This document shows positions 532 through 14,068 of a stretch of DNA of 64,000 bases, one piece after another (within the stretch, counting starts at the first letter, position 1; every line of letters begins with the position of its first letter). This DNA is from an uncultured Bacteroidales bacterium. Its GTDB lineage: Bacteria > Bacteroidota > Bacteroidia > Bacteroidales > UBA3663. The position numbers were made by a program, and so were the translations under genes. A model generated the notes under the pieces. That model saw nothing but the letters and a program-made list of their open reading frames with translations, was not told the DNA's origin and did not search any database. The stretch spans positions 1,072 to 65,071 of the forward strand of contig CAMPAQ010000013.1 in NCBI GenBank assembly GCA_946631995.1. The letters are read 5' to 3'.

Positions 532-560
532 ATAGAAAAGCCCGTTTGACGGAATCATCG

Positions 561-568: not shown

Positions 569-613
569 CAGACGAAAAGTTTAATCATCAACAAGTAACA
601 ATAAGGTACGATT

Positions 614-991: not shown

Positions 992-1168
992 TTTTCAATT
1001 CCAATTTACGAGATTTATGACGGCGCCTCAGCGTTGCTTGAACAAGTTCAACTCTGCGTTCGGCTTGCACATAAATTTGAGTTTTCCTTTTGCTCTCACT
1101 TAAACGCCAATTTTTGAGAACCCAAAAGATGATAAAGGGTTTTGGTTTTGAATAAACCAAAATATTCG

Positions 1169-1176
1169 TAACTTTG
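1169..1176 (+). promoter_or_regulatory. -7 promoter box TAACTTTG
   Basis: Exact TAnnTTTG. It overlaps the TTG (1174) that the ORF track used as a start, which argues for the ATG at 1213 as the real start. Confidence 0.45.
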
Positions 1177-1212
1177 CAGTCAGATAAATCGGAATTTATA
1201 GAAGACTTGACT

Positions 1213-1782
1213 ATGGAAAAAGAACTGTCGAAAATGACGTTGGAAGAATTGTGGGATTTATTCCCTATCTTCCTTGTTCAGCACGATGATCAGTGGAACG
1301 AATACTACAATGAGATAGAATCCAAAATTACTGATCTTTTGGTAGGTTATCCTGTTAAAAGAATCAGTCACATTGGAAGCACAGCGATACAGGGCATATG
1401 GGCCAAGAACATTGTTGATGTAATGGTTGAGATTTCTGAAAATGCCGATATGGAAGAGGTATCGCACGTTATGGAGCAGAATGGTTTTATCAGAATGTCT
1501 GACGAAAAGGGACGTATTTCACTCAATAAGGGATATACAAAAGAGGGATTTGCGGATAAAGTTTATCACATTCATCTTAGATATGCAGGAGATAATGATG
1601 AGTTGTATTTCCGCGACTATCTGAATGAGTATCCTCAGATTGCAAAGGAATATGAAACATTAAAGCTTGAATTATGGAAGAGATATGAGCATGACAGAGA
1701 TGCCTATACCATTGCAAAAACTGATTTCATTCGCAAATGGACAAAAGAAGCCCATACAATATATGGCAAAAGATACTTATAA
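1213..1782 (+). CDS. GrpB (UPF0157) family protein
   Basis: ..VKRISHIGSTAIQGIWAKNIVDVMVEI.. and ..YHIHLRYAGDNDELYFRDYLNEYPQIAKEYETLKLEL.. are GrpB nucleotidyltransferase-fold signatures. The start was moved to the first ATG after the promoter box. Confidence 0.75.
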   Translation: MEKELSKMTLEELWDLFPIFLVQHDDQWNEYYNEIESKITDLLVGYPVKRISHIGSTAIQGIWAKNIVDVMVEISENADMEEVSHVMEQNGFIRMSDEKGRISLNKGYTKEGFADKVYHIHLRYAGDNDELYFRDYLNEYPQIAKEYETLKLELWKRYEHDRDAYTIAKTDFIRKWTKEAHTIYGKRYL

Positions 1783-1852
1783 ATTCCAATTTTTCGGACA
1801 ACAAAACTTCCGACATACTCATTTATGTTTTTTGAAGTGACAATGAACTTCG

Positions 1853-1891
1853 CCCCGAGGTCCGCAATGTGGACTTTCGGGGTATTTTTTT
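1853..1891 (+). terminator. Rho-independent terminator-like hairpin plus T-run
   Basis: ccccgaggtcc / ggactttcgggg stem (one bulge), followed by tattttttt. Confidence 0.55.
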
Positions 1892-2020
1892 GGCCGATGC
1901 ACATCGCCCATAACCCCAAGAATACCGAAATTGTGGTATTTCAAACACTTCAAAAAAGCTCTACCTTCGCGCCGCAAAAATGCTCAAAAATGTCGAGAGA
2001 CAGAGCGTAATCCGATAGAA

Positions 2021-4975
2021 ATGACGTTATTAAGGTCGTGTCCGATGGCTTGTCGCTACATTTTTTTCCTGTCCCTTCTGCTCTGGAACGGCGTATGCCG
2101 GGCCTCTTCGACCGTGTCGGTGGGCGGACGGGTGACATCGGCCAAGGGCGAGCCGCTCGAATCATCGACCGTGAGCCACGCGGCCAGCGGACTTTGGGCT
2201 TTGACCGACGCGAAGGGCGACTTCACGCTACGCGGATTGCCATCGGGCAACGTCGAACTTGAGGTGCGCATCGTGGGCTACAGGACGCAGACCGTGCGGC
2301 TCAACCTCGCGGCCGACACCACTGGCGTGCGCATCGCATTGGCCGAAGACAACCTCAAACTGAGCGAGGTCAGCATCACCGCACGACAGAGCCGGACGAG
2401 CGAGACGACATCGTACGTCATTGGCCGCAACGCACTGGAACACACGCAGATGCTCAACGTGGCCGATGTGACATCGCTGCTCCCGGGCGGCAAGACTTCG
2501 GGCGACGTGAGCCTGATGAGCGACAGCCGCATCGCCCTGCGCAGCGCGGGGTCTGGCGAGATGGGCAACACCGCATTCGGCACAGCCATCGAGGTGGACG
2601 GCGTGAGGCTTTCGGCCAATGCGCAGATGTCGTCGCCCAACGGAGCAAGCACGCGCACTGTGGCCGCCGCCAACGTCGAGTCGGTCGAAATCGTGACCGG
2701 AATCCCCTCGGTGGAGCACGGCGACCTCTCGAACGGCATCGTCAAGGTGCGCACCCGACGCGGCAAGACGCCGTGGACCATCGACGCATCGGTCAAGCCA
2801 CACACGCGGCTGGTTGCCGTGAGCAAGGGCTGGAATCTGGGCGACGGCCGACGGCACAGCGGCTCGATGCTGAACTTCAGCCTGGAACGCGCCAAGTCGT
2901 TCTCCAACCTCACCTCGCCGCACACGAGCTACGACCGCAACGCACTGTCGCTCAACTATTCACGTCGCACGCGCGGGCAAATGCCATTGGCCATAAACAT
3001 CGGATTGACGGCCAATGTGGGCGGCTACGACAGCGAGGCCGACCCCGACTACTACGCCGATACCTACAGCAAGGTACGCGACCGAGTGGTGCGCGGCAAC
3101 GTGCGTCTGCAATGGCAGCTGAACCGCCGCTACGCGACTTCTGTCGAGTTTTCGGCCAATGCATCGGCCGCCGACCAGCGCCAGCAGGAGCGTTCGTACA
3201 CCAGTTCAGCATCGTCGCAGGCACAGATACACGCCACGGGCGAGGGCTACAACGTGGCCACGGAATATGACGCCGACCCATCGGCCGCAATCATCCTCGG
3301 CCCAATCGGCTACTGGTACCGCACGGCCACGACCGACAGCAAGCCCATCGATGCCGCCCTCCACATCAAGTACCTCTGGGCCAAACGGTTGCCGAACGGC
3401 ATCGGACACCGTCTGAAGGCCGGCATCGACTGGCACGCCGAGGGCAACGCGGGGCGCGGCACGACCTACGACGACCTGCGCACCGCCCCCACCTGGCGCG
3501 CCGCCCGCTACGACACGCTGCCCTGGCTGCACAGCCTTGCCGCCTACGCCGAGGAGCACCTCACGGCCGAATTTGCATCATCGGCCAAAGCCACACTGAC
3601 CGCCGGACTGCGCGCCGACGTGACCCACGTGAACGGTTCGGCCTACGGCACGGCCAACGCCCTCTCGCCACGCATCAGCGGACGCATCCGCCTGTGGGAC
3701 GATGACGGCCGATGGCTCTCGATGCTCAACCTGCACGGCGGATGGGGCAAGTCGGTCAAGCTGCCTTCGATGGCGGTGCTCTACCCCACGACGAGCTACA
3801 CCGACCAGCTGGCTTTTGCGCCGGGCACGATGGCCGACGGAAGGACGTTCTACGCCTACTACACCATCCCGTCGAGCGCACGCTACAACCCGTCGCTCCG
3901 CTGGCAGTACGCCACACAGACCGAAGTGGGCGTCGAGGGTCGCATCGGCCGCACCAGAATCGCGCTTTCGGCCTACCGCACGGTGACTCACCGCCCCTAC
4001 ATCGCGACATCGGTCTATACGCCCTACACCTACCGCTACACGTCGCAGGCCGCACTCGAATCGTCGGCCATACCATCGGCCAACCGCTCGTACAGCATCG
4101 ACCCGACAACGGGCATCGTCACCGTGAGCGACCGCACCGGAACATCGGCCGACGAAACCCTCGCATACACCGAGCGGCACGCCTTCAAGGGCAACACGAT
4201 GTGGGTGAACGGTTCGGCATCGACGCGGCAGGGCATCGAATGGGTGGTTGACTTCGCCCGCATCCCGTGGCTCGACACCGAAGTGCGCTGGGACGGCAAC
4301 GCGGCCTTCTACAACGGCACGGAACACACGCTCATGCAGTCGCGCTCGTCGCTCACATTGGCCGACGGACAGCCGTTCCCCTACATCGCCTACTATGAGG
4401 GCAGCACGACGGTGGCCAATGGTTCGCTGACGCGACGCGTGAACTCCAACCTGACGGTGACGACGCACATCCCCGTGGTGCGGCTCATCCTCTCGGTGAA
4501 GCTGGAGGCGACCCTGTGCCGCTACTCGCGCAACTTGCAGTCGGACGGCATCATCCCCGACGGCGAAAACAGCTACGTGGGGTCGCGTAGCAGTGACCTG
4601 AGCGGGCACTACGCGATTGTCTATCCGCGCTACTACGCGACTTGGGACGACCCCGCGACGCTCATCCCGTTTGAAGAGGCGTTCCTCGCGGCCAAGGAGA
4701 GCGACACGGAGCTTTACCAGCGGCTGATGCGCCTGGTGCTGCGGTCGAACACCGACTACTTCTTCACCGCGAACCGCGTGTCGCCCTACCTGTCGGGCAA
4801 CATCAACGTGACGAAGGAGATTGGCGACCACGTGACGCTGTCGTTCCAGGCGACGAACTTCTGGAACTCGACGCGCAAGGTCCACACCTCACAGACCGAC
4901 AGCGAGACGACGCTCTACGGCAGCAGCTACATCCCGTCGTTCTACTACGGACTGGCGCTGAAGGTGAAGATATAG
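2021..4975 (+). CDS. TonB-dependent receptor with carboxypeptidase-regulatory-like N-domain
   Basis: - Signal peptide MTLLRSCPMACRYIFFLSLLLWNGVCRA.
- GRVTSAKGEPLESSTV..GDFTLRGLPSGNVELEVRIVGY is a CarboxypepD_reg-like domain.
- The plug motif ..VESVEIVTGIPSVEHGDLSNGIVKVRTRRG is present.
- A long Tyr/Gly/Ser-rich beta-barrel follows.
- The start was set at the ATG that precedes the signal peptide. Confidence 0.85.
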   Translation: MTLLRSCPMACRYIFFLSLLLWNGVCRASSTVSVGGRVTSAKGEPLESSTVSHAASGLWALTDAKGDFTLRGLPSGNVELEVRIVGYRTQTVRLNLAADTTGVRIALAEDNLKLSEVSITARQSRTSETTSYVIGRNALEHTQMLNVADVTSLLPGGKTSGDVSLMSDSRIALRSAGSGEMGNTAFGTAIEVDGVRLSANAQMSSPNGASTRTVAAANVESVEIVTGIPSVEHGDLSNGIVKVRTRRGKTPWTIDASVKPHTRLVAVSKGWNLGDGRRHSGSMLNFSLERAKSFSNLTSPHTSYDRNALSLNYSRRTRGQMPLAINIGLTANVGGYDSEADPDYYADTYSKVRDRVVRGNVRLQWQLNRRYATSVEFSANASAADQRQQERSYTSSASSQAQIHATGEGYNVATEYDADPSAAIILGPIGYWYRTATTDSKPIDAALHIKYLWAKRLPNGIGHRLKAGIDWHAEGNAGRGTTYDDLRTAPTWRAARYDTLPWLHSLAAYAEEHLTAEFASSAKATLTAGLRADVTHVNGSAYGTANALSPRISGRIRLWDDDGRWLSMLNLHGGWGKSVKLPSMAVLYPTTSYTDQLAFAPGTMADGRTFYAYYTIPSSARYNPSLRWQYATQTEVGVEGRIGRTRIALSAYRTVTHRPYIATSVYTPYTYRYTSQAALESSAIPSANRSYSIDPTTGIVTVSDRTGTSADETLAYTERHAFKGNTMWVNGSASTRQGIEWVVDFARIPWLDTEVRWDGNAAFYNGTEHTLMQSRSSLTLADGQPFPYIAYYEGSTTVANGSLTRRVNSNLTVTTHIPVVRLILSVKLEATLCRYSRNLQSDGIIPDGENSYVGSRSSDLSGHYAIVYPRYYATWDDPATLIPFEEAFLAAKESDTELYQRLMRLVLRSNTDYFFTANRVSPYLSGNINVTKEIGDHVTLSFQATNFWNSTRKVHTSQTDSETTLYGSSYIPSFYYGLALKVKI

Positions 4976-4988
4976 AGCAAAGAGCCAG

Positions 4989-5037
4989 CAGACCCTCTCA
5001 GACCCCCTCCCGACCTCCCCGAGGGGAGGAGATTGGA
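4989..5037 (+). repeat. GC-rich hairpin element (family B), + orientation
   Basis: cagaccctctcagaccccctcccgacctccccgaggggaggagattgg, starting 14 nt after the TBDR stop codon. The core stem is cctcccc-ga-ggggagg (5014-5029). Confidence 0.8.
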
Positions 5038-5055
5038 AAGTTACCACAGGAGGGC

Positions 5056-5145
5056 AAAAATGTAGAGACGTTTCATGAAACGTCTCTACGGCAAGAAAAA
5101 ACGTAGGGGCGCATCGAACGGGACAACCATTTCCATGTCTTTCAG
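5056..5145. repeat. About 90-bp direct repeat, copy 1 (contains the perfect 28-bp palindrome GTAGAGACGTTTCATGAAACGTCTCTAC at 5062-5089)
   Basis: It aligns with 5197-5284 with a handful of substitutions or indels. The palindrome (family A) was read directly. Confidence 0.85.
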
Positions 5146-5174
5146 TAGGGGGCACCACAATGTGACGTCTCCAT
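5145..5174. repeat. Degenerate family A palindrome (CCACAATGTGACGTCTC variant)
   Basis: gtagggggcaccacaatgtgacgtctccat resembles GTAGAGACGCCACA(N)TGTGACGTCTCTAC (8589, 35168, 44562), but the left arm is decayed. Confidence 0.5.
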
Positions 5175-5196
5175 GACAGGGAAACGGCACACGCGG

Positions 5197-5284
5197 AAAA
5201 TGTAGAGACGTTTCATGAAACGTCTTTACGGCAAGAAAAACGCAGGGGCGCATCGAACGGAACAAACATTTCCGTGTCTTTCAG
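5197..5284. repeat. About 90-bp direct repeat, copy 2 (palindrome 5202-5229 with one mismatch)
   Basis: See 5056-5145. The ATG at 5215 used by the ORF track lies inside the palindrome (..tttcATGaaacg..). Confidence 0.85.
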
Positions 5285-5392
5285 CGGTTTCCGTGCAATT
5301 CCGTGGTAAAAAATCATTGGCAATAAAAATTCAAAACTTCAACAATAAACATTTAAAAAGCTTACACCCTCGGCAACAAACCAAAGCCACCT

Positions 5393-5491
5393 CCCCATCA
5401 AGGGGGTCCTCGCAGCGAAAAGAAAGATTGATAATCTTTCAGCGAGAAGACGAACCTTTAGGTGAGGGGACGATGCTGGGGAGAGGGTCTG
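5393..5491 (-). repeat. About 100-bp nested-hairpin element (family B, long form), inverted copy
   Basis: Its reverse complement (cagaccctctccccagcatcgtcccctcacctaaaggttcgtcttctcgctgaaagattatcaatctttc..ttcgctgcgaggacccc..gggg) aligns along its whole length with 9357-9457. It ends 6 nt before the ATG at 5497. Confidence 0.8.
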
Positions 5492-5496
5492 ATTTT

Positions 5497-6804
5497 ATGA
5501 AAAAGTATCTTTCACTTCTGTGTGCGAGCCTGATGGCTCTGTCATTCACCGCCTGCGACGAAGACGACGAAACCCCAACCTACGAGCTGACCGTCCAGCT
5601 GAACTTCCCTGAGGGCTTTGCGGCCGACGAATCGGCCAACGTGACCCTCAGCAACGTGCAGGGCACGACCTGGAAGCAGGAGAGCGACGCGACGGGCGCA
5701 GTAACCTTCAACGTACCGGCCGGAATCTACTCGGCCAGCGCGACCGACCGCAACAACGGCCACATCTTCAACGGCACATTGGCCGAAATCACCGTGACCA
5801 ACGCCGCTGTCAGCGCAACCGTCGAGATGCAGGCATCGAACTCAAGCCAGATCATCATCAAGGAGCTCTACATCGGCGGCTGTATGGACAACGACGGCGC
5901 CAAGGCTTACCAGCGTGACCCATACGTCATCCTCTACAACAACAGCGGCGAGGTGGCATCGGCCGAAAACCTCTGCCTCGGCATGTGCCTGCCGTTCAAC
6001 GCTCACGCATCGAACAAGAACGTGACCGACGGCGTGCTCAGCTACGAGAACGAGGGCTTCATCCCAGCCGGCTACGGCATCTGGTACTTCCCATCGACCG
6101 TCACCATCGAGCCTTACAGCGAAATCGTCGTTGCCCTCAACGGTGCCATCGACCACACCGTGACCTACAGCAATTCGGTGAACTTGGCCGATGCCTCATA
6201 CTTTGCCTGCTACGATCCGGACGACTGGAACAACACGTCGTACTACCCGACCCCATCGGAAGTGATCCCGACCTCGCACTATCTGTTGGCCGAAAAGTGG
6301 GGCTTGGGCAACGCCTGGCCAATGAGCGCCATCGACCCTGCCTTCTTCATCTTCACAACCGAGGGCATCACGCCGAGCGAATTTGCTGCCGCCCAGGACT
6401 GGTGGTACAACGGCAACACCGTGTCGGACATCAACGCCTGCCTGAAGGTCAAGACCGAATGGGTGCTCGACGCCATTGAGGTCTTCACCACCACGGCCGA
6501 CGGCAACCAGAAGCGTCTCACTGCCTCGACCGATGCCGGCAGAGTCTATTTCACCAACAAGCACGGCTATTCGATGTTCCGCAACGTCGATCTGGAGGCT
6601 ACCAAGGCCATCGAGGGCAACGAATCTCTGCTCGTCACTGGCATGACAAGCTGCGACGATGAGGCAGCCGATGTGGTCAAGTGCGACAAGAACGGCATCG
6701 ACGCTGTGGCATCGGCCAAGAACGGTGCCAAGATCATCTATCAGGACAGCAACAACTCGTCGAACGACTTCTTCGAGCGCTATCAGGCTTCTCTTAAAGA
6801 GTAA
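5497..6804 (+). CDS. Surface lipoprotein, DUF4876-like (carboxypeptidase-regulatory-like plus lamin-tail-like modules)
   Basis: - Lipobox MKKYLSLLCASLMALSFTAC followed by DEDDE, an acidic surface-export-like signal.
- ..LTVQLNFPEGF..TGAVTFNVPAGIYSA.. is a small Ig-like domain.
- ..IIIKELYIGGC..DPYVILYNNSGEVASAENLCLG resembles an LTD-like motif.
- It sits directly after a TBDR.
- The DUF4876 name is from memory of the conserved TBDR/DUF4876/DUF6850 trio. Confidence 0.6.
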   Translation: MKKYLSLLCASLMALSFTACDEDDETPTYELTVQLNFPEGFAADESANVTLSNVQGTTWKQESDATGAVTFNVPAGIYSASATDRNNGHIFNGTLAEITVTNAAVSATVEMQASNSSQIIIKELYIGGCMDNDGAKAYQRDPYVILYNNSGEVASAENLCLGMCLPFNAHASNKNVTDGVLSYENEGFIPAGYGIWYFPSTVTIEPYSEIVVALNGAIDHTVTYSNSVNLADASYFACYDPDDWNNTSYYPTPSEVIPTSHYLLAEKWGLGNAWPMSAIDPAFFIFTTEGITPSEFAAAQDWWYNGNTVSDINACLKVKTEWVLDAIEVFTTTADGNQKRLTASTDAGRVYFTNKHGYSMFRNVDLEATKAIEGNESLLVTGMTSCDDEAADVVKCDKNGIDAVASAKNGAKIIYQDSNNSSNDFFERYQASLKE

Positions 6805-6805
6805 A

Positions 6806-6853
6806 CAGACCCTCTCCCCAACCCTCCCCCATAATGGGGAGGGGGAAAGGGTT
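6806..6853 (+). repeat. GC-rich hairpin element (family B), + orientation
   Basis: cagaccctctccccaaccctcccccataatggggagggggaaagggtt begins 2 nt after the TAA at 6802-6804. Its first 15 nt are identical to the reverse complement of 5477-5491. Confidence 0.8.
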
Positions 6854-6892
6854 ACAAATTTTCATTTAAGGGAGTGTTAGCATTCGGAACAA

Positions 6893-6951
6893 TCGTCCTT
6901 TTTACTCCTGAGACGCGCCACGGCACGTCTCTACATTCCCTTTCACTCCCC
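6893..6951. repeat. 58-bp direct repeat, copy 1 (contains the hairpin GAGACGCGCCACGGCACGTCTCTAC at 6910-6934)
   Basis: tcgtcctttttactcctgagacgcgccacggcacgtctctacattccctttcactcccc. It is repeated 88 bp downstream. Confidence 0.85.
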
Positions 6952-6980
6952 TTAAAAGACTTTAATGTCAGCTCCGACAT

Positions 6981-7038
6981 TCGTCCCTTTCACTCCTGAG
7001 ACGCGCCATGGCACGTCTCTACATTCCCTTTCACACCA
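6981..7038. repeat. 58-bp direct repeat, copy 2 (hairpin at 6998-7022)
   Basis: tcgtccctttcactcctgagacgcgccatggcacgtctctacattccctttcacaccac. Confidence 0.85.
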
Positions 7039-7057
7039 CTTAACAGCCCTTAAATAA

Positions 7058-8584
7058 ATGTTTCCCCTCCTGCTCATCGGCTGGCTTTCCAGCACCAACG
7101 CCGCAGGGCTTCAGACCCTGCCCGACAGCACCCGCACTTCGCGAGCCGAGGTGTGGGCTTCTGTGGCCAATGGCGCATGGGTGAACTACTACGCGAGTGA
7201 CGACAGCCGCGAGTGGGGAGCCGCGACACGTTCGCACTACCGCGTGGACAGTCGCGTAGCATTGGCCGGCGAGGTCTCCTACCGCAACTTCACGGGCCGC
7301 AACATGAGCGGGTCACTCTTCATCGACCCCACCGACAAGCCGTTCGACTTCGTGGAGTGGAACGACGGCCACGCCGGCGAGAAGCAGCTCGAAGAATACC
7401 GCCTGAACGGAGCCGCGAGCTACGGCATCGGCCGGCGATGGAGCATCGGCGCACGCATCGACTTCACATCGGCCAACTACGCGAAACGCCGCGACCTGCG
7501 CCACCAGAACCGGCTGATGCGGATGACGCTCTCGCCCGGCATGACGTGGCTGGCATCGGACAAGATGCGGCTCGGCGCAAGCGGCATCTTCACGCGCGAG
7601 GTGGAGGGCGTGGCGGTCAACATCGCGGGCACGGCCGACACCGACTACTACACGATGGTGAGCTACGGCGCATTCTACGGCATCAAGCAGCTGGCCTCGT
7701 CGCTCGACGGCTATCTGACCACGAGCAGCGGTTCGACACCGCTTGTTGACCGACGGCTGGGCGGCAGCGTGCAGATGGACTGGGTTTTGGCCGATGACTC
7801 CCGATGGTTCACCGAGGCGACAGTCACCGCGCGCGACGGCTACTACGGCCGCAAGTCGCTCTACTCGGTGGTCTATACCGACCACGATGGGATGGACATG
7901 CAGGTGCGCAGCGTCGTGCGACGTGCCACATCGGCCACAACCTGCCACCAGTGGGAGCTGACCGCGATGCGAAGCACATTGGCCAACCACGAAAACCTCT
8001 GGAACGAGGTGCAGGAGGGCGGCGGACTGACACGCATCGCCTACTACGCGAAAATGCAGCGTCTGCAACGCTCCACGCACGATTTCCGGCTCGCCTACGA
8101 CGTGGATTTCGGTGCATCGGCCGACCACCAGGCAGCGTGGCACGTGCAGGCCGAGGCGGCTCTCTGGATGCGCGACGTCAAGGCGACATTCTTCCCGACC
8201 TACCGCAAGCAGGAGGTGCGGCAATGGCGCATCGGAGCCAACGCCGGCAGGCACATCGGCCGTCGTCATGATGCGTTCGACATCTCGCTCGGCGCACGCT
8301 GGCAATGGGGCGGCGGGACGATGGCCGATGATGGTGTGGAGGGCGGCGGAGAGGCCACGACCCATGCCGTCTCGCTCGACCGCTATCTGGCTCACGAATT
8401 CGACTATCTGACCGCTCGGCAATGGTCGGCCGATGCCCAACTGCGCTATTCACGGCCAATGCCACGGCTCGGCGTCACGCCCTACGCCTCGCTCGACTAC
8501 GGACGGCGGCAGGCGACATCGGCCAACGTCATTGCCGACGATTTCCACCAGCAATGGACGCTACGTGTGGGCTGCGAATTCTAA
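7058..8584 (+). CDS. Outer-membrane beta-barrel protein, DUF6850-like
   Basis: ATG start and an N-terminal hydrophobic signal. The sequence is a long alternating Tyr/Arg/Gly/Asp-rich beta-strand pattern ending ..WTLRVGCEF (aromatic C-terminus). It is the third gene after the TBDR and the DUF4876-like gene. The family name is from memory. Confidence 0.55.
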   Translation: MFPLLLIGWLSSTNAAGLQTLPDSTRTSRAEVWASVANGAWVNYYASDDSREWGAATRSHYRVDSRVALAGEVSYRNFTGRNMSGSLFIDPTDKPFDFVEWNDGHAGEKQLEEYRLNGAASYGIGRRWSIGARIDFTSANYAKRRDLRHQNRLMRMTLSPGMTWLASDKMRLGASGIFTREVEGVAVNIAGTADTDYYTMVSYGAFYGIKQLASSLDGYLTTSSGSTPLVDRRLGGSVQMDWVLADDSRWFTEATVTARDGYYGRKSLYSVVYTDHDGMDMQVRSVVRRATSATTCHQWELTAMRSTLANHENLWNEVQEGGGLTRIAYYAKMQRLQRSTHDFRLAYDVDFGASADHQAAWHVQAEAALWMRDVKATFFPTYRKQEVRQWRIGANAGRHIGRRHDAFDISLGARWQWGGGTMADDGVEGGGEATTHAVSLDRYLAHEFDYLTARQWSADAQLRYSRPMPRLGVTPYASLDYGRRQATSANVIADDFHQQWTLRVGCEF

Positions 8585-8588
8585 ACCT

Positions 8589-8617
8589 GTAGAGACGCCA
8601 CAGTGTGACGTCTCTAC
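8589..8617. repeat. Family A palindrome GTAGAGACGCCACAGTGTGACGTCTCTAC
   Basis: Read directly. It starts 5 nt after the stop at 8584. Confidence 0.9.
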
Positions 8618-8644
8618 GATGGAACAAAACCGGACGGGACATTT

Positions 8645-8672
8645 GTAGAGACGTTTCATGAAACGTCTCTAC
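8645..8672. repeat. Family A perfect 28-bp palindrome GTAGAGACGTTTCATGAAACGTCTCTAC
   Basis: Identical to 5062-5089. The ATG at 8658 used by the ORF track lies inside it. Confidence 0.9.
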
Positions 8673-8720
8673 GGCGGAACAGGAAAATTCACGAATAAAA
8701 CAATATCAATCATTTTTTCT

Positions 8721-9356
8721 ATGAAAAAGTCATTCTCATTCATCCTCGCCGCAACCGCGCTGCTCTTCGCATCGTGCGGCGGCAACAAGTCGAACAACGA
8801 GGCATCGGCCAACAACACCGCAGATGCCGCCAACGTCATTTCGGTCGATTCGCTGCTGGCATCGGCCGACAAACTCATCGACCAGAGCGTCACCATCGAG
8901 GGCGTCTGCACCCACACCTGCCGCCACGGCGCGACGAAAATCTTCGTGATGGGCAGCAACAACGACAACCTCATCCGCTGCGAGGCCGCCGCACTGGGCC
9001 GTTTCAGCAAGGAGTGCGTCCACAGTGTGGTGCGCGTCACCGGCATCGTGCGCGAAACCCGCATGGACGAGGCCTACCTGCAACGCTGGAAGTCGAACTA
9101 CGAACAGGCATTGGCCGAACAGCAGGCTCAGGCCGAAGAGGGTCTGCAATCCGGTGCCGAGGCCGACGAGAAGGTCGCTACTTCGGCCGGATGCGAGACC
9201 GAGAGCCGTGCGCGCGGCGAGAAGGGCAACACCGTCGATGACAAGATTGCCGCCTACCGCGAACAGATTGCTGCCCGCAAGGCCGCCGAGGGCAAGGATT
9301 ACCTCTCGTTCTACCACATCGAGACTACGGGTTATGAAATTGTACCAACAGAATAA
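8721..9356 (+). CDS. Lipoprotein with a Cys/His cluster (CTHTCRH .. C .. ECVH) and an Ala/Gln/Glu-rich C-terminal half; function unknown
   Basis: Lipobox MKKSFSFILAATALLFASC followed by GGNKSNNE (no acidic export-like signal). C-T-H-T-C-R-H is encoded at 8907-8927. I recognise no family. Confidence 0.6.
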   Translation: MKKSFSFILAATALLFASCGGNKSNNEASANNTADAANVISVDSLLASADKLIDQSVTIEGVCTHTCRHGATKIFVMGSNNDNLIRCEAAALGRFSKECVHSVVRVTGIVRETRMDEAYLQRWKSNYEQALAEQQAQAEEGLQSGAEADEKVATSAGCETESRARGEKGNTVDDKIAAYREQIAARKAAEGKDYLSFYHIETTGYEIVPTE

Positions 9357-9457
9357 CAGACCCTAACCCCAACCTCTGCCCCTCAGCTAAAGCTTCGTCT
9401 TCTCGCTGAAAGATTATCAATCTTTCCATTCGCTGCGAGGACCCCGTTATGTAGGGG
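9357..9457 (+). repeat. About 100-bp nested-hairpin element (family B, long form), forward copy
   Basis: It starts on the base after the TAA at 9354-9356. It contains gaaagatt-atc-aatctttc and flanking cgctg/cgagg arms. It aligns with the reverse complement of 5393-5491. Confidence 0.8.
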
Positions 9458-9527
9458 AAGGGAGTGGTTTGAAATCGTCTCACAAAACTCTGAAAATTTC
9501 AACAAATTGCTTAAAATCAGATTGTAT

Positions 9528-9575
9528 CCACTCCCCCTCCCTCTGTAACGGGAGGGGGTTCGGGGGGTGGGTCTC
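9528..9575 (-). repeat. GC-rich hairpin element (family B), inverted orientation
   Basis: cactccccctccctctgtaacgggagggggttcggggggtgggtctc. Its reverse complement begins gagacccacccccc.. . It ends 12 nt before the ATG at 9588. Confidence 0.7.
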
Positions 9576-9587
9576 TTCTTTAAAATT

Positions 9588-10478
9588 ATGAATTCCGTCA
9601 TTTCGTGTCAACATCTGACGCACTACTACGGCAAACGGAAAATCTACGAAGACCTCAACTTCGAGGTTCCAGAAGGCCGCATCCTCGGACTGTTGGGCAA
9701 GAACGGCACCGGCAAGACCACCACGATCAACATCCTGTCGGGCTACTTGAAACCACGTTCCGGCACGTGCCAGATCTTCGGCCAGGACATCCAGACGATG
9801 GATCCCGCCCTGCGCCGCCGCATCGGCCTGCTCATCGAGGGCCACGTGCAGTACCAGTTCATGAACATCGAACAGATCGAACGCTTCTACGCGAGTTTTT
9901 ATCCCGGCCAATGGCGCAAGGAGGCATACTACGAGCTGATGGCCAAGCTGAAGGTCGCCCCACGGCAGATGATTTCGCGCATGTCGTGCGGACAACGCAG
10001 CCAGGTCGCCCTCGGCCTCATCCTCGCCCAGAATCCCGACCTGCTCGTGCTCGACGACTTCAGCATCGGCCTCGACCCGGGCTACCGCCGCCTCTTTGTC
10101 GATTACCTGCGCGAGTTCGTCAAGGCCGAGCGCAAGACCGTCTTCCTCACCTCCCACATCATTCAGGACATGGAGCGGCTGGTCGATGACTGTATCATCA
10201 TGGACTACGGCCGCATCCTGACGCAACAGCCATTGGACACCCTGCTCGACACGCTGCACCGCTTCACCGCGCGCGTTCCCGAGGGCTACGATGTGGCCTT
10301 CTCCGATGCCGACCTGTTCCATCCGTCGGTCATCCGTGGCACGCTTGAACTCCATTCGTTCCTTTCGTCCGACGAGGTTTCGGCCCGGCTCACGGCCAAT
10401 GGCGTTCCATTCAGCGACCTGCACTGCGAATCGCTCAATCTGGAGGACGCCTTCATCGGACTGACAGGAAAATACTGA
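9588..10478 (+). CDS. ABC transporter ATP-binding protein (ABC-2/exporter type)
   Basis: Walker A GKNGTGKTT, signature-like MSCGQRSQV, Walker B LLVLDD, H-loop TSH. The start was set at the first ATG (MNSVISCQHL). Confidence 0.9.
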   Translation: MNSVISCQHLTHYYGKRKIYEDLNFEVPEGRILGLLGKNGTGKTTTINILSGYLKPRSGTCQIFGQDIQTMDPALRRRIGLLIEGHVQYQFMNIEQIERFYASFYPGQWRKEAYYELMAKLKVAPRQMISRMSCGQRSQVALGLILAQNPDLLVLDDFSIGLDPGYRRLFVDYLREFVKAERKTVFLTSHIIQDMERLVDDCIIMDYGRILTQQPLDTLLDTLHRFTARVPEGYDVAFSDADLFHPSVIRGTLELHSFLSSDEVSARLTANGVPFSDLHCESLNLEDAFIGLTGKY

Positions 10479-10503
10479 TTTCAAGCCGCTACGTGGCTTG
10501 AAA
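10479..10503 (+). other. 9-bp-stem hairpin immediately after the ABC ATPase stop codon
   Basis: tttcaagcc-gctacgt-ggcttgaaa. No T-run follows. Confidence 0.5.
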
Positions 10504-10515
10504 TCAAGGTAATAG

Positions 10516-10578
10516 TTATCAGTTATTAGTTATTAGATAACAGCTAATAGTTATCAGTTACGAGTTATTAGTTATCAG
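10516..10578 (+). repeat. Nine tandem heptads (TTATCAG/TTATTAG-like)
   Basis: TTATCAG TTATTAG TTATTAG ATAACAG CTAATAG TTATCAG TTACGAG TTATTAG TTATCAG, read directly. Confidence 0.85.
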
Positions 10579-10594
10579 CTTTGTCGCATCGGAC

Positions 10595-10622
10595 ATAATA
10601 ACTAATAACTAAAACCTAATAA
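10595..10622 (-). repeat. Four heptads of the same family in inverse orientation
   Basis: ATAATAA CTAATAA CTAAAAC CTAATAA (the reverse complement of TTATTAG-type units). It is separated from the forward array by the 16-bp spacer ctttgtcgcatcggac. Confidence 0.8.
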
Positions 10623-10645
10623 CTTTTTTTTCAACGAAAAAAACC

Positions 10646-11302
10646 ATGTTTTACAAAGAATATCTAAAAACGCGCTGGTACCTGCTGCTGATGCTGCTCA
10701 CCACATCGGGCTTTGCGGGCTACGGACTGCTGCGCCTGCATCGCGTTGCGGCAGTGAACGGCATCGGCCACGCATGGGAAGTGATGCTCATGCACGACGT
10801 CGTCTTCATCGACCTGCTGGAGTACGTGCCGGTCATCTGCGGACTGGTGCTGGCCCTGATGCAGTTCGTACCCGAGATGTACCACAAATGTCTGAAACTC
10901 ACGCTTCACCTGCCCGTGTCGCACCTCAAGGCCGTCAACCAGATGCTGCTATGGGGCGTGGCCGCAACCGTTGCGTGCGCCGTCGTCAACTACGCGATTC
11001 TGTGGGGCTACATGAGCCAGGTCTTGGCCAATGAGCTGTGGAGCCGCATCCTCTGGACCGCCCTGCCGTGGTATCTGGCCGGACTCGCCGCCTACCTGCT
11101 CGGCGCGTGGATCATCCTCGAACCGGCATGGCGCCGCCGCATCGTCAACATCGTGGTGGCCGTCCTCGTGCTCAAGGTCTATTTCGTGAGCGAACAGCCG
11201 ATGGCCTACTTCGGTTTCCTGCCGTGGCTCGCGCTCTACACCATCGCACTCCTCTCGTTCAGCTGGATCAGCATCAGCCGGTTCAAGGAGGGCAAGGAAT
11301 GA
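10646..11302 (+). CDS. Polytopic membrane protein, probable permease partner of the ABC ATPase
   Basis: ATG start, 218 aa, about 6 hydrophobic segments (..WYLLLMLLTTSGFAGYGLL.., ..VPVICGLVLALMQFV.., ..LLWGVAATVACAVVNYAILWGY.., ..LPWYLAGLAAYLLGAWIIL.., ..IVNIVVAVLVLKVYF.., ..LPWLALYTIALLSFSWI..). No family was recognised. Confidence 0.6.
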   Translation: MFYKEYLKTRWYLLLMLLTTSGFAGYGLLRLHRVAAVNGIGHAWEVMLMHDVVFIDLLEYVPVICGLVLALMQFVPEMYHKCLKLTLHLPVSHLKAVNQMLLWGVAATVACAVVNYAILWGYMSQVLANELWSRILWTALPWYLAGLAAYLLGAWIILEPAWRRRIVNIVVAVLVLKVYFVSEQPMAYFGFLPWLALYTIALLSFSWISISRFKEGKE

Positions 11303-11316
11303 AATGAAAAAAATGT

Positions 11317-11347
11317 GACCCCCCTCCAACTCCCCCAAGGGGGAGGG
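11317..11347 (+). repeat. GC-rich hairpin element (family B), + orientation
   Basis: gacccccctccaactcccccaagggggaggg, 15 nt after the stop at 11302. Confidence 0.75.
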
Positions 11348-11410
11348 ATTAATCCTTAGAAACGAGGGGTATTATTGTAAATAACATTATAACTAATTCA
11401 TACTTCCAAT

Positions 11411-11441
11411 CACCTCCCCTCGGGGAGGTCGGGAGGGGGTC
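11411..11441 (-). repeat. GC-rich hairpin element (family B), inverted orientation
   Basis: cacctcccctcggggaggtcgggagggggtc. Its reverse complement gaccccctcccgacctccccgaggggaggtg is almost identical to 5001-5031. It ends 14 nt before the ATG at 11456. Confidence 0.85.
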
Positions 11442-11455
11442 GATTTTATTTGATT

Positions 11456-12484
11456 ATGAAAAAATTTGCCAATATCCTATTGTGCCTCACCGTCGTGCTG
11501 CTGCTCGTGTGGCAGTTGCCGTGGCTCATCAACTTCGTGAGCACGCCGTCGGGACATTCACCGTTCACGCTCTACAGCTCGTTGGCCGATGACTTCATCT
11601 ACAACGACATGGGCGACGACAAGAAACTGCGCCGCTTCGGCACCAGCGGCCGCGAATACACCGAGGCCGAGACCGACTCGCTCCTCCCCTTCTTCTACAT
11701 GCGCCAGCTTGTGGCCGACGGCCGTTTCCCCGACACCATCATGGGCCGCGCCGTCACGCCCCACGAAGTGCAGCAGAGCAACCTCATCGAACGCTTCAAT
11801 CCGCGCGACGTCAACACCCGTGGCATCGAGCTCTATCCGCTGCTCGAAAGCATGCCGAAGCGCGTCGAACTCGCGATGCCCGACGACATGTTCCGCATCA
11901 CGGCCGATGGCATCGAATTCGTCCGCATGGAGAGCAACGACGTTGACCGCGAAAAGAGCGAGCGTTTCACCAAGGCATTGGCCGACAAGGGCTTCCACTT
12001 CCCCGCTACGCGAGTTTCGGGCAATCCGTCGCCCCGCAAGTCGTACGACGAGGGCTACCTCCTGCTCGATGCCGACCACCGTCTGTTCCAGCTCAAGCGT
12101 TGCGCCAACCGTCCGTTCGTCAAGCAGTTCGACGTGGCCGACAGCATCCGCCTCGAGCACATCTTCATCTGCGAACCGAGCGGCCGCCAGCTACGCGGAT
12201 TTGCCACCGACGACGCCCATCGTCTCTACGTCATCACGGCCGACTACCGCCTCGCCCCAACCGCCGTCGAGCACTTCGACCCGACCCGCGAGCGGATGCT
12301 CATCATCGGCAATATGATCGACTGGACGGTCTCTGTCACGGGCGACGATGCCGTCCGCTACTACGCGATTTCGGCCGACGACTACAGCCTCATCCGTAGC
12401 TTCGACCGCCCGCTGGACAGCAGTTCCGTGCCCGGCCTTCACTTCACGTCGGCCAACGACAACTACTGCTACCCGAGGTTCTGA
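11456..12484 (+). CDS. N-terminally membrane-anchored protein, DUF4857-like
   Basis: MKKFANILLCLTVVLLLVWQLPWL is a single TM anchor, followed by a soluble domain (..SLLPFFYMRQLVADGRFPD..). It follows the ABC ATPase and permease. The DUF4857 name is from memory. Confidence 0.55.
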   Translation: MKKFANILLCLTVVLLLVWQLPWLINFVSTPSGHSPFTLYSSLADDFIYNDMGDDKKLRRFGTSGREYTEAETDSLLPFFYMRQLVADGRFPDTIMGRAVTPHEVQQSNLIERFNPRDVNTRGIELYPLLESMPKRVELAMPDDMFRITADGIEFVRMESNDVDREKSERFTKALADKGFHFPATRVSGNPSPRKSYDEGYLLLDADHRLFQLKRCANRPFVKQFDVADSIRLEHIFICEPSGRQLRGFATDDAHRLYVITADYRLAPTAVEHFDPTRERMLIIGNMIDWTVSVTGDDAVRYYAISADDYSLIRSFDRPLDSSSVPGLHFTSANDNYCYPRF

Positions 12485-12524
12485 CGGCGTGAGCCATTGG
12501 CCATAGCCACGAAAATGAATCATG

Positions 12525-12566
12525 GAGACAGATGCCAACCATTGGCGTCTGTCTCTCGCGTTTTTA
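12525..12566 (+). terminator. Rho-independent terminator
   Basis: gagacagatgccaa-cca-ttggcgtctgtctc (14-bp stem with one G-U pair), followed by tcgcgttttta. Confidence 0.7.
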
Positions 12567-12967
12567 TGCCGCACTTGCAACATGCGCCTTCCAATTCACA
12601 TAAGCAGCAACGTCAAAATCGACGCATGAAAATGAAAAAAATGTGGGAAATCCCCCATTCCCATAAAAAAACGACACATTTGCATCGCAAACCGCATTCA
12701 ATCAATCAAGAATGCAAGCCTTATCTGAAAAACAACAAAGCAAATCCTTCTGAAAATTTGCCTTGTAAGACACAAGATACAAACCTTTTTCACAAAAGAT
12801 TACTTATTTCATGCCGTAAACGTGATTGATTACACGAAAGACGAAACAGGGAAAGTCATCTACAAGATTTTTGATCCAGTTAAAGGTTTCTGTGACTATA
12901 ACATTGTTCCATACACTGATAAATAGAGGATATGCAATTATCCCCAAAAAATAAAACAATAATACTT

Positions 12968-14068
12968 ATGAAACAAATTCTTACAATTACATTTTTTCTC
13001 TGTGCTTTACTTAGCAATGCACAAATTAGTGTCAATTCAAATCAATTAAACGGAACAAGATATAAACTTTTTTATCCAACGGAATCATACCGAACCGAAG
13101 AGATTGAATGGGCGGATAGTGCATTTTTTATAAAACAATATTATATGCCAGACATATTTGTGCATAATATTGCATCTTTTACAATAAAAAGGCCATACTA
13201 TCTTTCCGATTCAATTCCAGCGGCATTTGACCACACAAAAGTAGGTTCTTCAACTTCTGGAAAATATCTTTTACTGTTCAACAAAAAATCGCAAACAATA
13301 ACTTATTACACAATTGCCGCATTTGATGAGGCTACAATAAGTCTGTTCTACAAAATGCCAGATAAGGACAAAAAAGTAGATGCAAGTGATTGGGAAAAAA
13401 ACTACATCAAAATTTCGCAATGTGCCCCTATAGAAGTGCAAAATGATGCGGTAAAATGTCGCTTAAATGCGAATGACCATACAGCACAAATCTTCGATTT
13501 TGGAGAATATGAACTGGAATTAGATGATAACAAAATTGATTCTCCTTCGACTTTCACATTCGAAGGAGAATCATATACCATCACTTCCGTTGCGGACTCT
13601 GCTTTTGCTGGTTGCACACAATTAGTTAGAGCAAAGTTACCAAATGGGGTTACGAAAATTGGCAAGTATGCATTTCGAGGGTGCAAGAATTTGGTGTCGG
13701 CCACCATGCAGGAGGGCATTCCATACATCGATACCGGCATGTTTGTCGATTGTGAAAAACTGACATCGGTTTCGATTCCGGAGAGTGCCACGCATATTTG
13801 GTCGCTGGCATTCGACGGTTGCAAGAGTCTGACCGAAATCACTTTGCCGTCGGGCCTCACCAAAATGGAAGGTGGCGTTTTCCGTGGTTGCACATCGCTA
13901 AAGACCATCACCAACCTTGCCACGACGCCACCAGAGTTGCGCGCCGACGGCACGACATTCAATGGCTTTGACCGTTCGCAATGCACCTTGATTGTGCCCA
14001 AAGGCTGTGCCGCGAAATACCGAGCGGCCGACGGCTGGAAAGAGTTCAAGAAAATCGTTGAAAAATAA
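12968..14068 (+). CDS. Secreted leucine-rich-repeat protein (BspA-like LRR)
   Basis: - Signal peptide MKQILTITFFLCALLSNAQ.
- The C-terminal half has about 23-aa repeats: ..SVADSAFAGCTQLVRAKLPNGVTKIGKYAFRGCKNLVSATMQEGIPYIDTGMFVDCEKLTSVSIPESATHIWSLAFDGCKSLTEITLPSGLTKMEGGVFRGCTSLKTI..
- An alternative ATG lies at 12932. Confidence 0.8.
   Translation: MKQILTITFFLCALLSNAQISVNSNQLNGTRYKLFYPTESYRTEEIEWADSAFFIKQYYMPDIFVHNIASFTIKRPYYLSDSIPAAFDHTKVGSSTSGKYLLLFNKKSQTITYYTIAAFDEATISLFYKMPDKDKKVDASDWEKNYIKISQCAPIEVQNDAVKCRLNANDHTAQIFDFGEYELELDDNKIDSPSTFTFEGESYTITSVADSAFAGCTQLVRAKLPNGVTKIGKYAFRGCKNLVSATMQEGIPYIDTGMFVDCEKLTSVSIPESATHIWSLAFDGCKSLTEITLPSGLTKMEGGVFRGCTSLKTITNLATTPPELRADGTTFNGFDRSQCTLIVPKGCAAKYRAADGWKEFKKIVEK

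Follow-up and report, generated by a model that had tools for sequence, protein, structure and literature searches.

A conserved envelope operon of gut and rumen Bacteroidales, counterpart of the iron-induced BT3625–BT3633 locus, as a candidate TonB-dependent iron acquisition system

Introduction

What is the task of seven consecutive envelope genes that lie together at positions 2021–12484 of a 64,000-nucleotide stretch of DNA from an uncultured Bacteroidales bacterium (GTDB lineage UBA3663; GenBank assembly GCA_946631995.1, contig CAMPAQ010000013.1)? An earlier reading of this whole stretch, which we call the window, was made from its letters and open reading frames (ORFs); this original prediction took the seven genes for a cluster that joins an energised outer-membrane importer and a surface-exposed binder to an inner-membrane ABC-2 module and a possible metal-binding lipoprotein, and guessed at metal or small-cofactor trafficking. 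Bacteroidales are dominant in the gut and the rumen, where host and pathogens are their competitors for iron, and we know of no iron uptake routes in this order beyond Hmu, for heme, and Xus, for xenosiderophores. No function is known for five of the eight families that make up the cluster in its consensus form, and four are without a sequence relative of known structure.

We find that the cluster is real, widespread and already published as iron-induced, and that it is mechanistically uncharted. It occurs in at least 305 GTDB species-representative genomes and is among the most strongly iron-induced loci of Bacteroides thetaiotaomicron. An iron-related role is probable, and we lean, with confidence somewhat above an even chance, towards the fuller reading that the seven genes are one operon for an iron-limitation-responsive TonB-dependent acquisition system, the counterpart of BT3625–BT3633. 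The analysis yields an operon with a putative promoter, an operator and a terminator, a candidate HxCxH metal site and an ATPase family with a catalytic-site substitution; the operator, the HxCxH core of an OB-fold lipoprotein and the Asp in place of the catalytic Glu are new here.

A recurrent seven-gene unit with iron-induced counterparts

As the original prediction had described, positions 2021–12484 hold seven consecutive + strand ORFs, confirmed at their coordinates, with no credible opposite-strand gene between them; the − strand ORFs listed inside this interval are long spurious frames of the kind usual in GC-rich coding DNA. The same seven genes were called independently on two public contigs that encode an identical DUF4857 protein, one from the UBA metagenome-assembled genome GCA_002373755.1 and one an ENA metagenome scaffold. 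Profile searches recovered every Pfam family that had been predicted (CarboxypepD_reg, Plug, DUF4876, DUF6850, ABC_tran and DUF4857) and gave no Pfam or NCBIfam match for the fourth and sixth genes, in Pfam even at E up to 10. The seven genes, g1 to g7, are as follows.

2021–4975, + strand: g1, TonB-dependent receptor (TBDR), 984 amino acids (aa), with N-terminal CarboxypepD_reg and Plug domains (Pfam)
5497–6804, + strand: g2, DUF4876 lipoprotein (Pfam DUF4876, E 5.5e-20)
7058–8584, + strand: g3, DUF6850 protein, 508 aa, predicted outer-membrane beta-barrel (Pfam, full length, E 2.3e-42)
8721–9356, + strand: g4, Cys/His lipoprotein, 211 aa, predicted to face the periplasm, OB-fold barrel plus helices in an AlphaFold2 (AF2) model
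9588–10478, + strand: g5, ABC ATPase of the ABC-2/ABCA/DrrA/NosF-like group (Pfam ABC_tran, E 8e-23; NCBIfam)
10646–11302, + strand: g6, presumed permease, 218 aa, six hydrophobic segments (hydropathy, conservation)
11456–12484, + strand: g7, DUF4857 protein, 342 aa, with an N-terminal membrane anchor (Pfam, E 1.4e-101)

The ORF of g2 opens at 5215, and its lipoprotein start (MKKYLS...FTAC) lies at 5497. The single anchor expected of g7 is there, as one N-terminal helix (residues 2–29), in a protein of 342 aa rather than the 343 first given.

To see how the unit is conserved, we used a DUF4857 alignment to scan one genome per GTDB species, which gave 305 stretches with a relative; the best 80 of these 305 were fetched with 10-kb flanks (loci L001–L080) and searched with the seven window proteins, all their ORFs were clustered, and Pfam was run on the recurrent unknowns. 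Among the 50 loci from other species that were fully flanked (at least 9 kb on both sides), the ABC ATPase and DUF4876 families were found in all 50, the TBDR and the permease in 49 each, DUF6850 in 47, and the g4 family and a PepSY-like gene in 40 each. All seven window families stood together in 37 of the 50, a grouping far beyond chance, which bears out the statement in the original prediction that the TBDR/DUF4876/DUF6850 and ABC/DUF4857 families recur elsewhere. The order g5–g6–g7 was identical in 80 of 80 loci. The consensus order of the whole is TBDR, DUF4876, DUF6850, g4, PepSY_TM_like_2, ABC ATPase, six-transmembrane (6-TM) protein and DUF4857, with an Mfa-like lipoprotein inserted between DUF6850 and g4 only in the B. 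thetaiotaomicron group. Neighbouring genes of the relatives overlap or nearly so (median gaps of −32 to +63 nt; L001 and L002 are tightly packed), and some loci show an inverted order or have the two halves as separate transcription units. The seven genes are one operon, found across gut and rumen Bacteroidales.

One of these loci (L065) is BT3633–BT3625 of B. thetaiotaomicron, all nine genes of which are induced 37–128-fold by iron depletion (PMC10434189). It has the same families, order and operator type as the window cluster, with 27–75% identity to the window proteins; it differs in an extra Mfa-like/Fib_succ_major surface lipoprotein and a PepSY_TM_like_2 gene, neither of which the window has, and the spacers of the window are expanded by repeats. 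The window cluster is thus a member of the BT3625–33-type family, minus the PepSY-like and the Mfa-like gene. In Porphyromonas gingivalis the DUF4876/TBDR locus PG1019–22 rises 21–214-fold under iron depletion (PMC10434189), PG1019/1020, described as an 'uncharacterized transport system', are up in a hemH mutant without heme (PMC13096392), and mutation of the LuxR-type regulator CdhR lowers expression of PG1019. A preprint by Price predicts that DUF4876 proteins are receptor lids and reports that the pairing of DUF4876 with a receptor is conserved in 59 genera (bioRxiv 10.1101/2023.03.17.533168). The claim that the cluster has no experimental function therefore needs softening, given the published expression data and lid hypothesis; it stands for substrate and mechanism, neither of which we found in the literature for a cluster of the BT3625–33 type. 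In our literature search no paper mentioned 'DUF6850', and the transcriptome paper (PMC10434189) was the only one with DUF4857.

A candidate operator shared with iron-homeostasis genes

The regions upstream of the TBDR genes have a 22-nt motif in common, with the consensus ATATACCTATAAATAGCGATTG in 33 of 43 dereplicated regions, and the position weight matrix (PWM) used below was built from those 33. Its palindromic form is AAATACCTA-N4-TAGGTATTT, and it lies 58–95 nt before the TBDR start codon, about 20 nt 5′ of a −7 box TAnnTTTG, which is the consensus of the Bacteroides −7 promoter box. The window has the corresponding features upstream of g1.

1920–1941, no strand: candidate operator GAATACCGAAATTGTGGTATTT, a palindrome ATACC-N8-GGTAT of the TACCTAT-NN-ATAGGTA type
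1962–1969, + strand: −7 promoter box TACCTTCG, Bacteroides-type, with one mismatch to TAnnTTTG, 20 nt 3′ of the operator

With scores of 13.0 and 11.9 bits, the window operator ranks second and third among all window positions, and the chance expectation for such a site in the 238-nt spacer is about 0.03. The arrangement of operator, gap of about 20 nt and TAnnTTTG also occurs in related loci, and the TACCTTCG box probably serves as a promoter element; sigma-70 promoter scans are uninformative for Bacteroidales. Other PWM matches in the window, at 32935, 55344 and 59561, were set aside, as they lack the palindrome and adjoin unrelated genes. The match at 32935 (13.7 bits, non-palindromic) lies about 200 nt upstream of a second large TonB-receptor-like gene of CarboxypepD_reg/OMP_b-brl_4 type (29401–32730, − strand), in the divergent promoter region between that gene and a GH28 gene, and is probably a chance match.

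All 80 loci together contain 83 operator sites of at least 18 bits in 2.8 M positions, 50 of them directly upstream of a TBDR gene. In split clusters, 8 more precede ABC-led sub-operons and at least 4 precede g4-led ones; each half of a split cluster having its own operator, the outer- and inner-membrane halves are co-regulated. The occurrence of this operator before the cluster and before its split halves is new here. In the nearest relatives having full upstream sequence (L002, L004 and L076), an extra gene of 515–585 aa with a weak Calycin_like match precedes the TBDR (at ~120–1880), and the operator sits upstream of this gene, which the window does not have.

We also scanned metagenome contigs for the exact palindrome AATACCTA-N4-TAGGTATT (loci L083–L202) and found 122 sites, 114 intergenic and 8 inside ORFs, in Bacteroidota from gut, marine and freshwater samples. 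Among the 78 nearest downstream genes were 5 FeoA–FeoB fusions, 4 hemerythrin/RIC-like genes, 3 TBDRs, 1 Mrp/NUBPL gene and 6 LuxR/GerE regulators; LutA genes near palindromes are over 130 nt away from them and were left out of the regulon count. The same arrangement of operator, gap (here roughly 20–30 nt) and −7 box was seen at feoAB, RIC/hemerythrin and TBDR promoters. Judged by these sequences alone, the operator ties the window cluster to an iron-homeostasis regulon that includes feoAB, and it could lead to the iron regulator of the order. TACCTAT-NN-ATAGGTA has what we take to be the 7-2-7 arrangement of NarL-type sites, so the regulator is likely to belong to the LuxR/GerE family, consistent with the CdhR data, and the palindrome is a candidate operator of a phylum-wide iron regulon of NarL 7-2-7 type. 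The literature that we searched contained no description of the palindrome as an iron operator and no Bacteroides Fur or CdhR consensus that matches it. Rfam found no riboswitch or known RNA in positions 1–16000, and a transporter controlled by a cobalamin or other riboswitch is therefore not supported.

The outer-membrane trio

The TBDR, DUF4876 and DUF6850 genes are adjacent on the same strand in the window, and their families are those found in 47–50 of the 50 fully flanked loci. The receptor g1 is 36% identical to its B. thetaiotaomicron counterpart BT3633. It reaches 59 bits against the SusC/RagA model TIGR04056, in the N-terminal region only and with the cut-off at 368, and the lipoprotein beside it is DUF4876 and not SusD (Pfam); on its sequence we class g1 as a non-SusC TonB-dependent receptor.

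In g2 the lipobox Cys is followed by DEDDE, as predicted, and 71 of 73 DUF4876 family members have at least two D/E residues at +2 to +7 after this Cys. Such an acidic stretch is the surface-export signal of Bacteroidota, and g2 is predicted to be the surface-exposed partner, or 'lid', of the g1 receptor. The protein matches PDB entry 4q1z, a 'putative lipoprotein' (E 8e-7), which is the sole DUF4876 structure and comes from structural genomics without a function. The DUF6850 barrel g3 belongs to a family with two subfamilies. This outer-membrane half works like known TonB-dependent metal uptake systems, and the families and localisation signals support the earlier picture of an energised importer and surface binder joined to an ABC-2-like inner-membrane module.

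The g4 lipoprotein and a PepSY-like eighth gene

The 613 homologues found for g4 include none whose name gives a function, and at 50% identity the family falls into 947 clusters. The g4 protein is 42–77% identical to lipoproteins in the same position, directly upstream of the ABC module, in 63 loci, and all of these close relatives keep C63, H65, C67, H69, C99 and C158. The 42 divergent members have just H65, C67 and G108 without exception, with H69 in 37 of 42. The CxHxCxH cluster of the original prediction is present in the window (as CTHTCRH) and shrinks to HxCxH once the divergent members are counted, C63, C99 and C158 being conserved in the subfamily of g4 only; the core of the family is G-x3-H-x-C-x-H-G-G-x-K-x-F. 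In the AF2 model (pLDDT 81.6) the HxCxH motif lies on a hairpin of the OB barrel, for which Foldseek returned OB folds only, at TM scores below 0.3, as for a generic OB fold. An acidic residue after the lipobox Cys is absent from 61 of 63 g4 proteins; lacking the acidic export stretch, g4 should face the periplasm. The conserved HxCxH core makes metal binding, which had been suggested for g4, probable, and we take g4 to be the likely metal acceptor.

Three further observations concern this family. The subgroup of g4 proteins closest to the window among the aligned sequences bears an insertion of some 20 residues, acidic and helical (AQAEEGLQSGAEADEKVATS-like, residues ~140–165), that is absent from Bacteroides/Phocaeicola members; the window lineage is one without the PepSY-like gene. 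A protein of 585 aa with DUF4857 and g4 parts (P0396) was rejected as a fusion: its g4 part retains its own signal peptide and lipobox, so it is read-through or a missed stop and shows adjacency only, g4 following DUF4857 in that genome (representative library). A g4–histidine kinase protein (P0437) was likewise rejected, as it is missing the second His and looks chimeric.

A PepSY_TM_like_2 gene, whose product has three invariant His, is present in 62 loci; in 53 of 53 its sequence overlaps the 3′ end of g4. Searching with tblastn gave no homologue anywhere in the window, and the gene is also absent from the nearest relatives (L001–L004, L023, L024 and L076, all uncultured animal-gut Bacteroidales). 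In most known cases, PepSY_TM proteins reduce ferrisiderophores in the periplasm and depend on heme to do so (bioRxiv 10.1101/2021.01.28.428567). As speculation, the loss of the gene might be offset by a strongly reducing habitat or by a reductase elsewhere in the genome.

An ABC-2-like module with a substituted catalytic site

The nearest solved relatives of g5 are nucleotide-binding domains of ABCA proteins, 4yer, 1vpl and NosF (PDB matches, with a residue alignment to ABCA3). Its family has an intact Walker A, xSxGQ signature, Walker B Asp and H-loop His. The Walker B region reads LLVLDD-FS-LGLD: FS stands where PT usually follows Walker B, and in 75 of 82 sequences the catalytic Glu is an Asp, the 7 exceptions being paralogues; at the aligned Q-loop position 81 of 82 have Glu, and Gln comes four residues later. 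With both the catalytic Glu and the Q-loop Gln replaced, g5 is no catalytically canonical ABC ATPase. Its signature had been called degenerate, which it is not really, because MSCGQ keeps the S, G and Q of LSGGQ; the oddity lies at the catalytic position. A Glu-to-Asp change there marks the non-hydrolytic 'degenerate' sites of heterodimeric ABC exporters, and with a single ATPase gene both sites of a dimer would be of the Asp type. We expect a presumably homodimeric g5 to turn ATP over slowly, binding it without fast hydrolysis. The missing catalytic Glu, the common operator and the PepSY_TM_like_2 gene of the consensus cluster had all been overlooked.

In g6 the six hydrophobic segments claimed for it are seen, the charge distribution is positive-inside, and both ends are predicted inside. 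An invariant QFxPEMxxKxxKLTLHLP cytoplasmic loop follows TM2, and an invariant His/Trp pair lies in the first periplasmic loop. Its gene is always flanked by those of the ATPase and DUF4857. A single UniRef entry bears the name 'ABC-2 family transporter protein', and a profile search gives only orthologues without Pfam domains, so that ABC-2 membership rests on context and topology.

The AF2 model of g7 (pLDDT 88.9) has an N-terminal helix and a periplasmic alpha/beta plus beta-rich (beta-meander) domain, and the family has an invariant KxYDEGY motif. Foldseek gave weak beta-propeller matches only (NirN, AztD and BtuK1), and at TM scores of 0.20–0.33 we did not assign DUF4857 a beta-propeller fold. 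Searches of the PDB with single sequences and with profiles returned nothing useful for g4, g6, g7 or DUF6850: profiles of g4 and of DUF6850 found no relative, g6 had none even with a profile, and g7 had no sequence relative.

Comparison with known systems

The pyoverdine pathway of Pseudomonas combines TonB import, periplasmic reduction, Fe(II) capture and an inner-membrane ABC transporter (FpvA; FpvGHJK; FpvCDEF; PvdRT-OpmQ). The cluster appears to follow the same logic of ferric-chelate import, reduction, Fe(II) capture and ABC transporter, a likeness of presumed function: the periplasmic and inner-membrane parts are unrelated in sequence, and the pyoverdine ABC transporter is a type I/II importer with a binding protein, whereas that of the cluster is ABC-2-like with the bitopic DUF4857 protein. 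Nearer home, XusABC of B. thetaiotaomicron (BT2063–2065), whose substrates are enterobactin and salmochelin, has a non-SusC receptor, a surface lipoprotein 'lid' and induction by iron limitation, as well as an inner-membrane protein of PepSY_TM type like that of the consensus cluster (and unlike the window). Its lid is DUF4374 rather than DUF4876, however, and it has no DUF6850 protein, HxCxH lipoprotein or ABC/DUF4857 module.

For the inner-membrane half, System I cytochrome maturation offers CcmAB–CcmE, an ABC-2-type ATPase with a 6-TM permease of ~220 aa and a membrane-tethered periplasmic chaperone of OB fold. The cluster likewise has an ATPase, a 6-TM permease of similar size and a tethered OB-fold protein, but no match to the CcmB or CcmE profile, no CcmC or CcmD and no heme-binding motif, and DUF4857 has no Ccm counterpart. 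Nor does the module belong to GldAFG: g5 scores 129.7 bits against GldA with the cut-off at 402.6, and g6 and g7 match nothing in NCBIfam.

NosDFYL delivers copper to N2O reductase and uses ATP for handover rather than bulk transport (PMC8457098; PDB 7o0y). The original prediction had drawn a parallel to nosA plus nosDFYL, and in architecture it holds: both sets have a lipoprotein metallochaperone (putative in the cluster), an ABC-2-type ATPase, a 6-TM permease and a periplasmic partner, and NosF matches g5 at E 1e-21. Beyond architecture it fails. The g4, g6 and g7 proteins are unlike NosL, NosY and NosD and match none of these families, g7 matches DUF4857 only, its AF2 model is not the beta-helix of NosD, the catalytic Glu is an Asp, and regulation favours iron over copper or sulfur. 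No nosZ turned up within the cluster, on its flanks or among the genes that recur beside it in the 80 loci, the rest of the window not having been scanned for it. The guess of metal or cofactor trafficking was in the right general area, and its nos-like copper/sulfur direction is not where the regulatory evidence points. In Bordetella, CrtA/CrpH pairs a TonB-dependent transporter with a PepSY_TM protein for copper acquisition (PMC12914433, PMC13038864). Like the consensus cluster, it encodes a transporter together with a PepSY_TM protein, here to supply a metal that is not iron; it differs in its link to heme-copper oxidase and copper starvation and in having no DUF4876, DUF6850, DUF4857 or ABC protein; the window itself has no PepSY_TM gene. 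Every test for membership of Nos, Ccm, Gld or Sus by sequence or fold failed, and the resemblance to Nos, Ccm and the pyoverdine pathway is one of layout only.

A working model and its rivals

In the model that we propose, the operon would be transcribed from a start about 50–60 nt upstream of g1, under an operator common with feoAB and probably through a LuxR/GerE-type protein. At the surface, the DUF4876 lipoprotein would sit on the TonB-dependent receptor and help to capture an iron-bearing ligand, which the receptor would pass into the periplasm, the DUF6850 barrel being a third, obligate outer-membrane partner. There the OB-fold protein g4 would accept the metal at HxCxH, probably as Fe(II) made in most species by the PepSY_TM-like reductase, whose gene the window lineage has lost. 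At the inner membrane, g4 would hand the metal to the 6-TM permease, the anchored DUF4857 domain and the ATPase dimer, with ATP binding gating transfer or translocation; with no catalytic Glu in the ATPase, turnover would be slow, and the dimer would act as a switch rather than a pump. Iron is the presumed substrate, and the direction of transport and the role given to the ABC module are provisional assignments.

Handover from g4 to DUF4857 and the permease gated by ATP binding is possible but, in our judgement, doubtful. A wider proposal, which we think a little less likely again, is that g4, the PepSY_TM-like protein where present, the ATPase, the 6-TM protein and DUF4857 form an undescribed machine for handing metal from the periplasm to the inner membrane, in which the HxCxH chaperone docks on DUF4857 and an ATP-binding, barely hydrolysing dimer acts as the gate; this machine would be the main non-heme, non-siderophore-specific entry route for iron in gut Bacteroidales, and a NarL-type 7-2-7 regulon would replace the Fur box. 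If the mechanism is true, the cluster represents a new type of ABC-2-based metal handover system, as well as a marker of iron limitation for gut metagenomes and metatranscriptomes.

Several points tell against an iron acquisition system of this kind. The case for the substrate is indirect, and the published iron-depletion experiments cannot separate iron limitation from heme limitation. ABC-2-like folds usually belong to exporters or mechanotransducers, not importers, and Cu, Zn, Ni or heme could occupy an HxCxH site just as Fe could. The window operator reaches just 12–13 bits, against 18–33 bits in most relatives, and among the operator matches in metagenomes are NarL-type response regulators of unrelated environments, which means that the matches do not all belong to one regulon. 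The window lineage lacks the proposed PepSY-like reductase, which means that the reduction step cannot work there as stated, and one PepSY_TM subfamily functions in copper supply (PMC13038864). Mutants of BT3632 and BT3633 had no phenotype in 519 fitness experiments (bioRxiv 10.1101/2023.03.17.533168). Finally, the residues expected of a metal handler, Cys, His or Met, are not conserved in DUF4857.

Heme or porphyrin uptake, in which the trio would import a tetrapyrrole, g4 would be a CcmE-like heme chaperone and the ABC module would release or translocate its cargo as CcmAB does, strikes us as unlikely. Bacteroidales are heme auxotrophs, PG1019/1020 rise alongside the hmu genes in the heme-starved hemH mutant, in P. 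gingivalis mutation of CdhR abolishes expression of hmu as well as of PG1019, and the OB fold of g4 with its conserved His and Cys, the CcmB-like size and topology of g6 and the ABC-2 group of the ATPase would all suit such a system. Yet g4, g6 and g7 match no CcmB, CcmE, HmuY or other heme-binding family, CXXCH and HxxxY motifs are absent, a PepSY_TM reductase is typical of the handling of ferric chelates and not of heme, the species already own a dedicated hmu heme system, and the operator also fronts feoAB, a ferrous iron transporter. This last point bears on a further alternative, that FeoAB imports the iron and that g5–g7 with g4 work outward, expelling an iron-free chelator, a reduction by-product or a metallophore as PvdRT-OpmQ does, with the DUF6850 barrel as a possible exit. 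The ATPase does fall in the exporter/mechanotransducer group (ABC-2/ABCA/DrrA/NosF), a classical substrate-binding protein and a type I/II importer permease are absent, cytoplasmic import could be left to feoAB under the same operator, and the DUF6850 barrel, with no assigned role, always accompanies the system. An outward direction is nevertheless rather unlikely: there is neither a membrane-fusion adaptor nor a TolC-like duct, no locus has metallophore biosynthesis genes, the HxCxH lipoprotein makes better sense as an acceptor of metal than as a protein that handles chelators, and an ATPase without the catalytic Glu is a poor fit to a high-flux pump.

The cargo might instead be another transition metal (Cu, Zn, Ni, Co or Mn), handled by Nos-like chaperone trafficking or supplied as CrtA/CrpH supplies copper. 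His-Cys-His would suit Cu(I), Zn or Ni well, the layout of lipoprotein, ATPase, 6-TM protein and anchored protein parallels NosL/NosF/NosY/NosD (with the NosF match to g5 given above), and the Bordetella pair of receptor and PepSY_TM protein does supply copper. We consider such a metal quite improbable, however, given that no NosD, NosL, NosY or CusF family is matched, that the DUF4857 model is not a beta-helix, that no locus examined has a nosZ or heme-copper oxidase gene in or beside the cluster, that the counterparts respond to iron depletion and that the operator is common with feoAB. The disfavoured view that two unrelated systems merely adjoin, the outer-membrane trio g1–g3 and a separate ABC module g4–g7, could appeal to the trio without an ABC module in P. 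gingivalis (PG1019–22) and B. thetaiotaomicron (BT1938–39) and to the loci with inverted order or separately transcribed halves. It is most improbable, since the 50 fully flanked loci, all found by their DUF4857 gene, carry the TBDR, DUF4876 and DUF6850 in the numbers given above (49, 50 and 47), split halves each bear the same operator, and the nine B. thetaiotaomicron genes are co-induced. An iron-limitation-responsive acquisition operon is the reading that we retain.

Spacers, terminator and surroundings

The remaining features of the cluster lie between and behind its genes.

4976–5496 (the longest), 6805–7057, 8585–8720, 9357–9587, 10479–10645 and 11303–11455, no strand: spacers with palindromic repeats resembling REP elements and miniature inverted-repeat transposable elements (MITEs)
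12524–12556, + strand: intrinsic-terminator-like hairpin with T-run, 40 nt past the g7 stop codon

The hairpin at 12524–12556 is the sole + strand terminator-like site between 1500 and 13200, and none of the spacer repeats forms a + strand intrinsic terminator. At 136–521 bp the window spacers are unusually long because palindromic repeat elements have been inserted in this lineage, and the tight packing of the genes in relatives argues that the insertions are recent; these repeats are lineage-specific and stand outside the conserved system. Two families of REP-like palindromes are concentrated in the spacers other than 10479–10645. Five of the seven exact window matches to (GTA)GAGACG-loop-CGTCTC(TAC) lie there, with one copy at 5202–5229 that has 1 mismatch, as do four of the six window copies of CCTCCC-loop-GGGAGG. 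Two inverted repeats join different spacers in MITE-like opposite orientation, one of 123 nt (80% complementary; 5377–5499 and 9349–9471) and one of 38 nt (97%; 5001–5038 and 11404–11441). A copy of one of these ends at the g2 start codon, so the translation-initiation region of g2 is partly derived from the element. The g5–g6 spacer (10479–10645) is AT-rich (GC 0.31) and, unlike the other spacers, has degenerate AGTTATC/AGTTATT repeats that build a long imperfect hairpin with arms at 10501–10535 and 10596–10630.

The GC content of the cluster is 0.56–0.65 and that of the whole window ~0.55, with low-GC flanks at about 1000–2000 and 12500–15000. Horizontal transfer of the cluster, considered on account of its GC content, was rejected: the cluster matches the window average, and the flanks are the outliers. 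Upstream, a 125-aa ORF at 614–991 consists of an AraC-type HTH_18 domain alone, without a sensor domain, and is followed in the low-GC segment just before the cluster by a GrpB gene (1174–1782); both are absent from the related loci, and we found no evidence of a link between them and the cluster. Downstream, the low-GC stretch holds a BspA-type leucine-rich-repeat (LRR) protein (12932–14068) and two tandem paralogues (14170–14709 and 14761–15297) of ~179 aa, secreted or lipoprotein-like and without a Pfam family, which have identical C-termini (…YTVTGKELKIGERLVCKR), the segments compared being 14076–14253 and 14667–14844.

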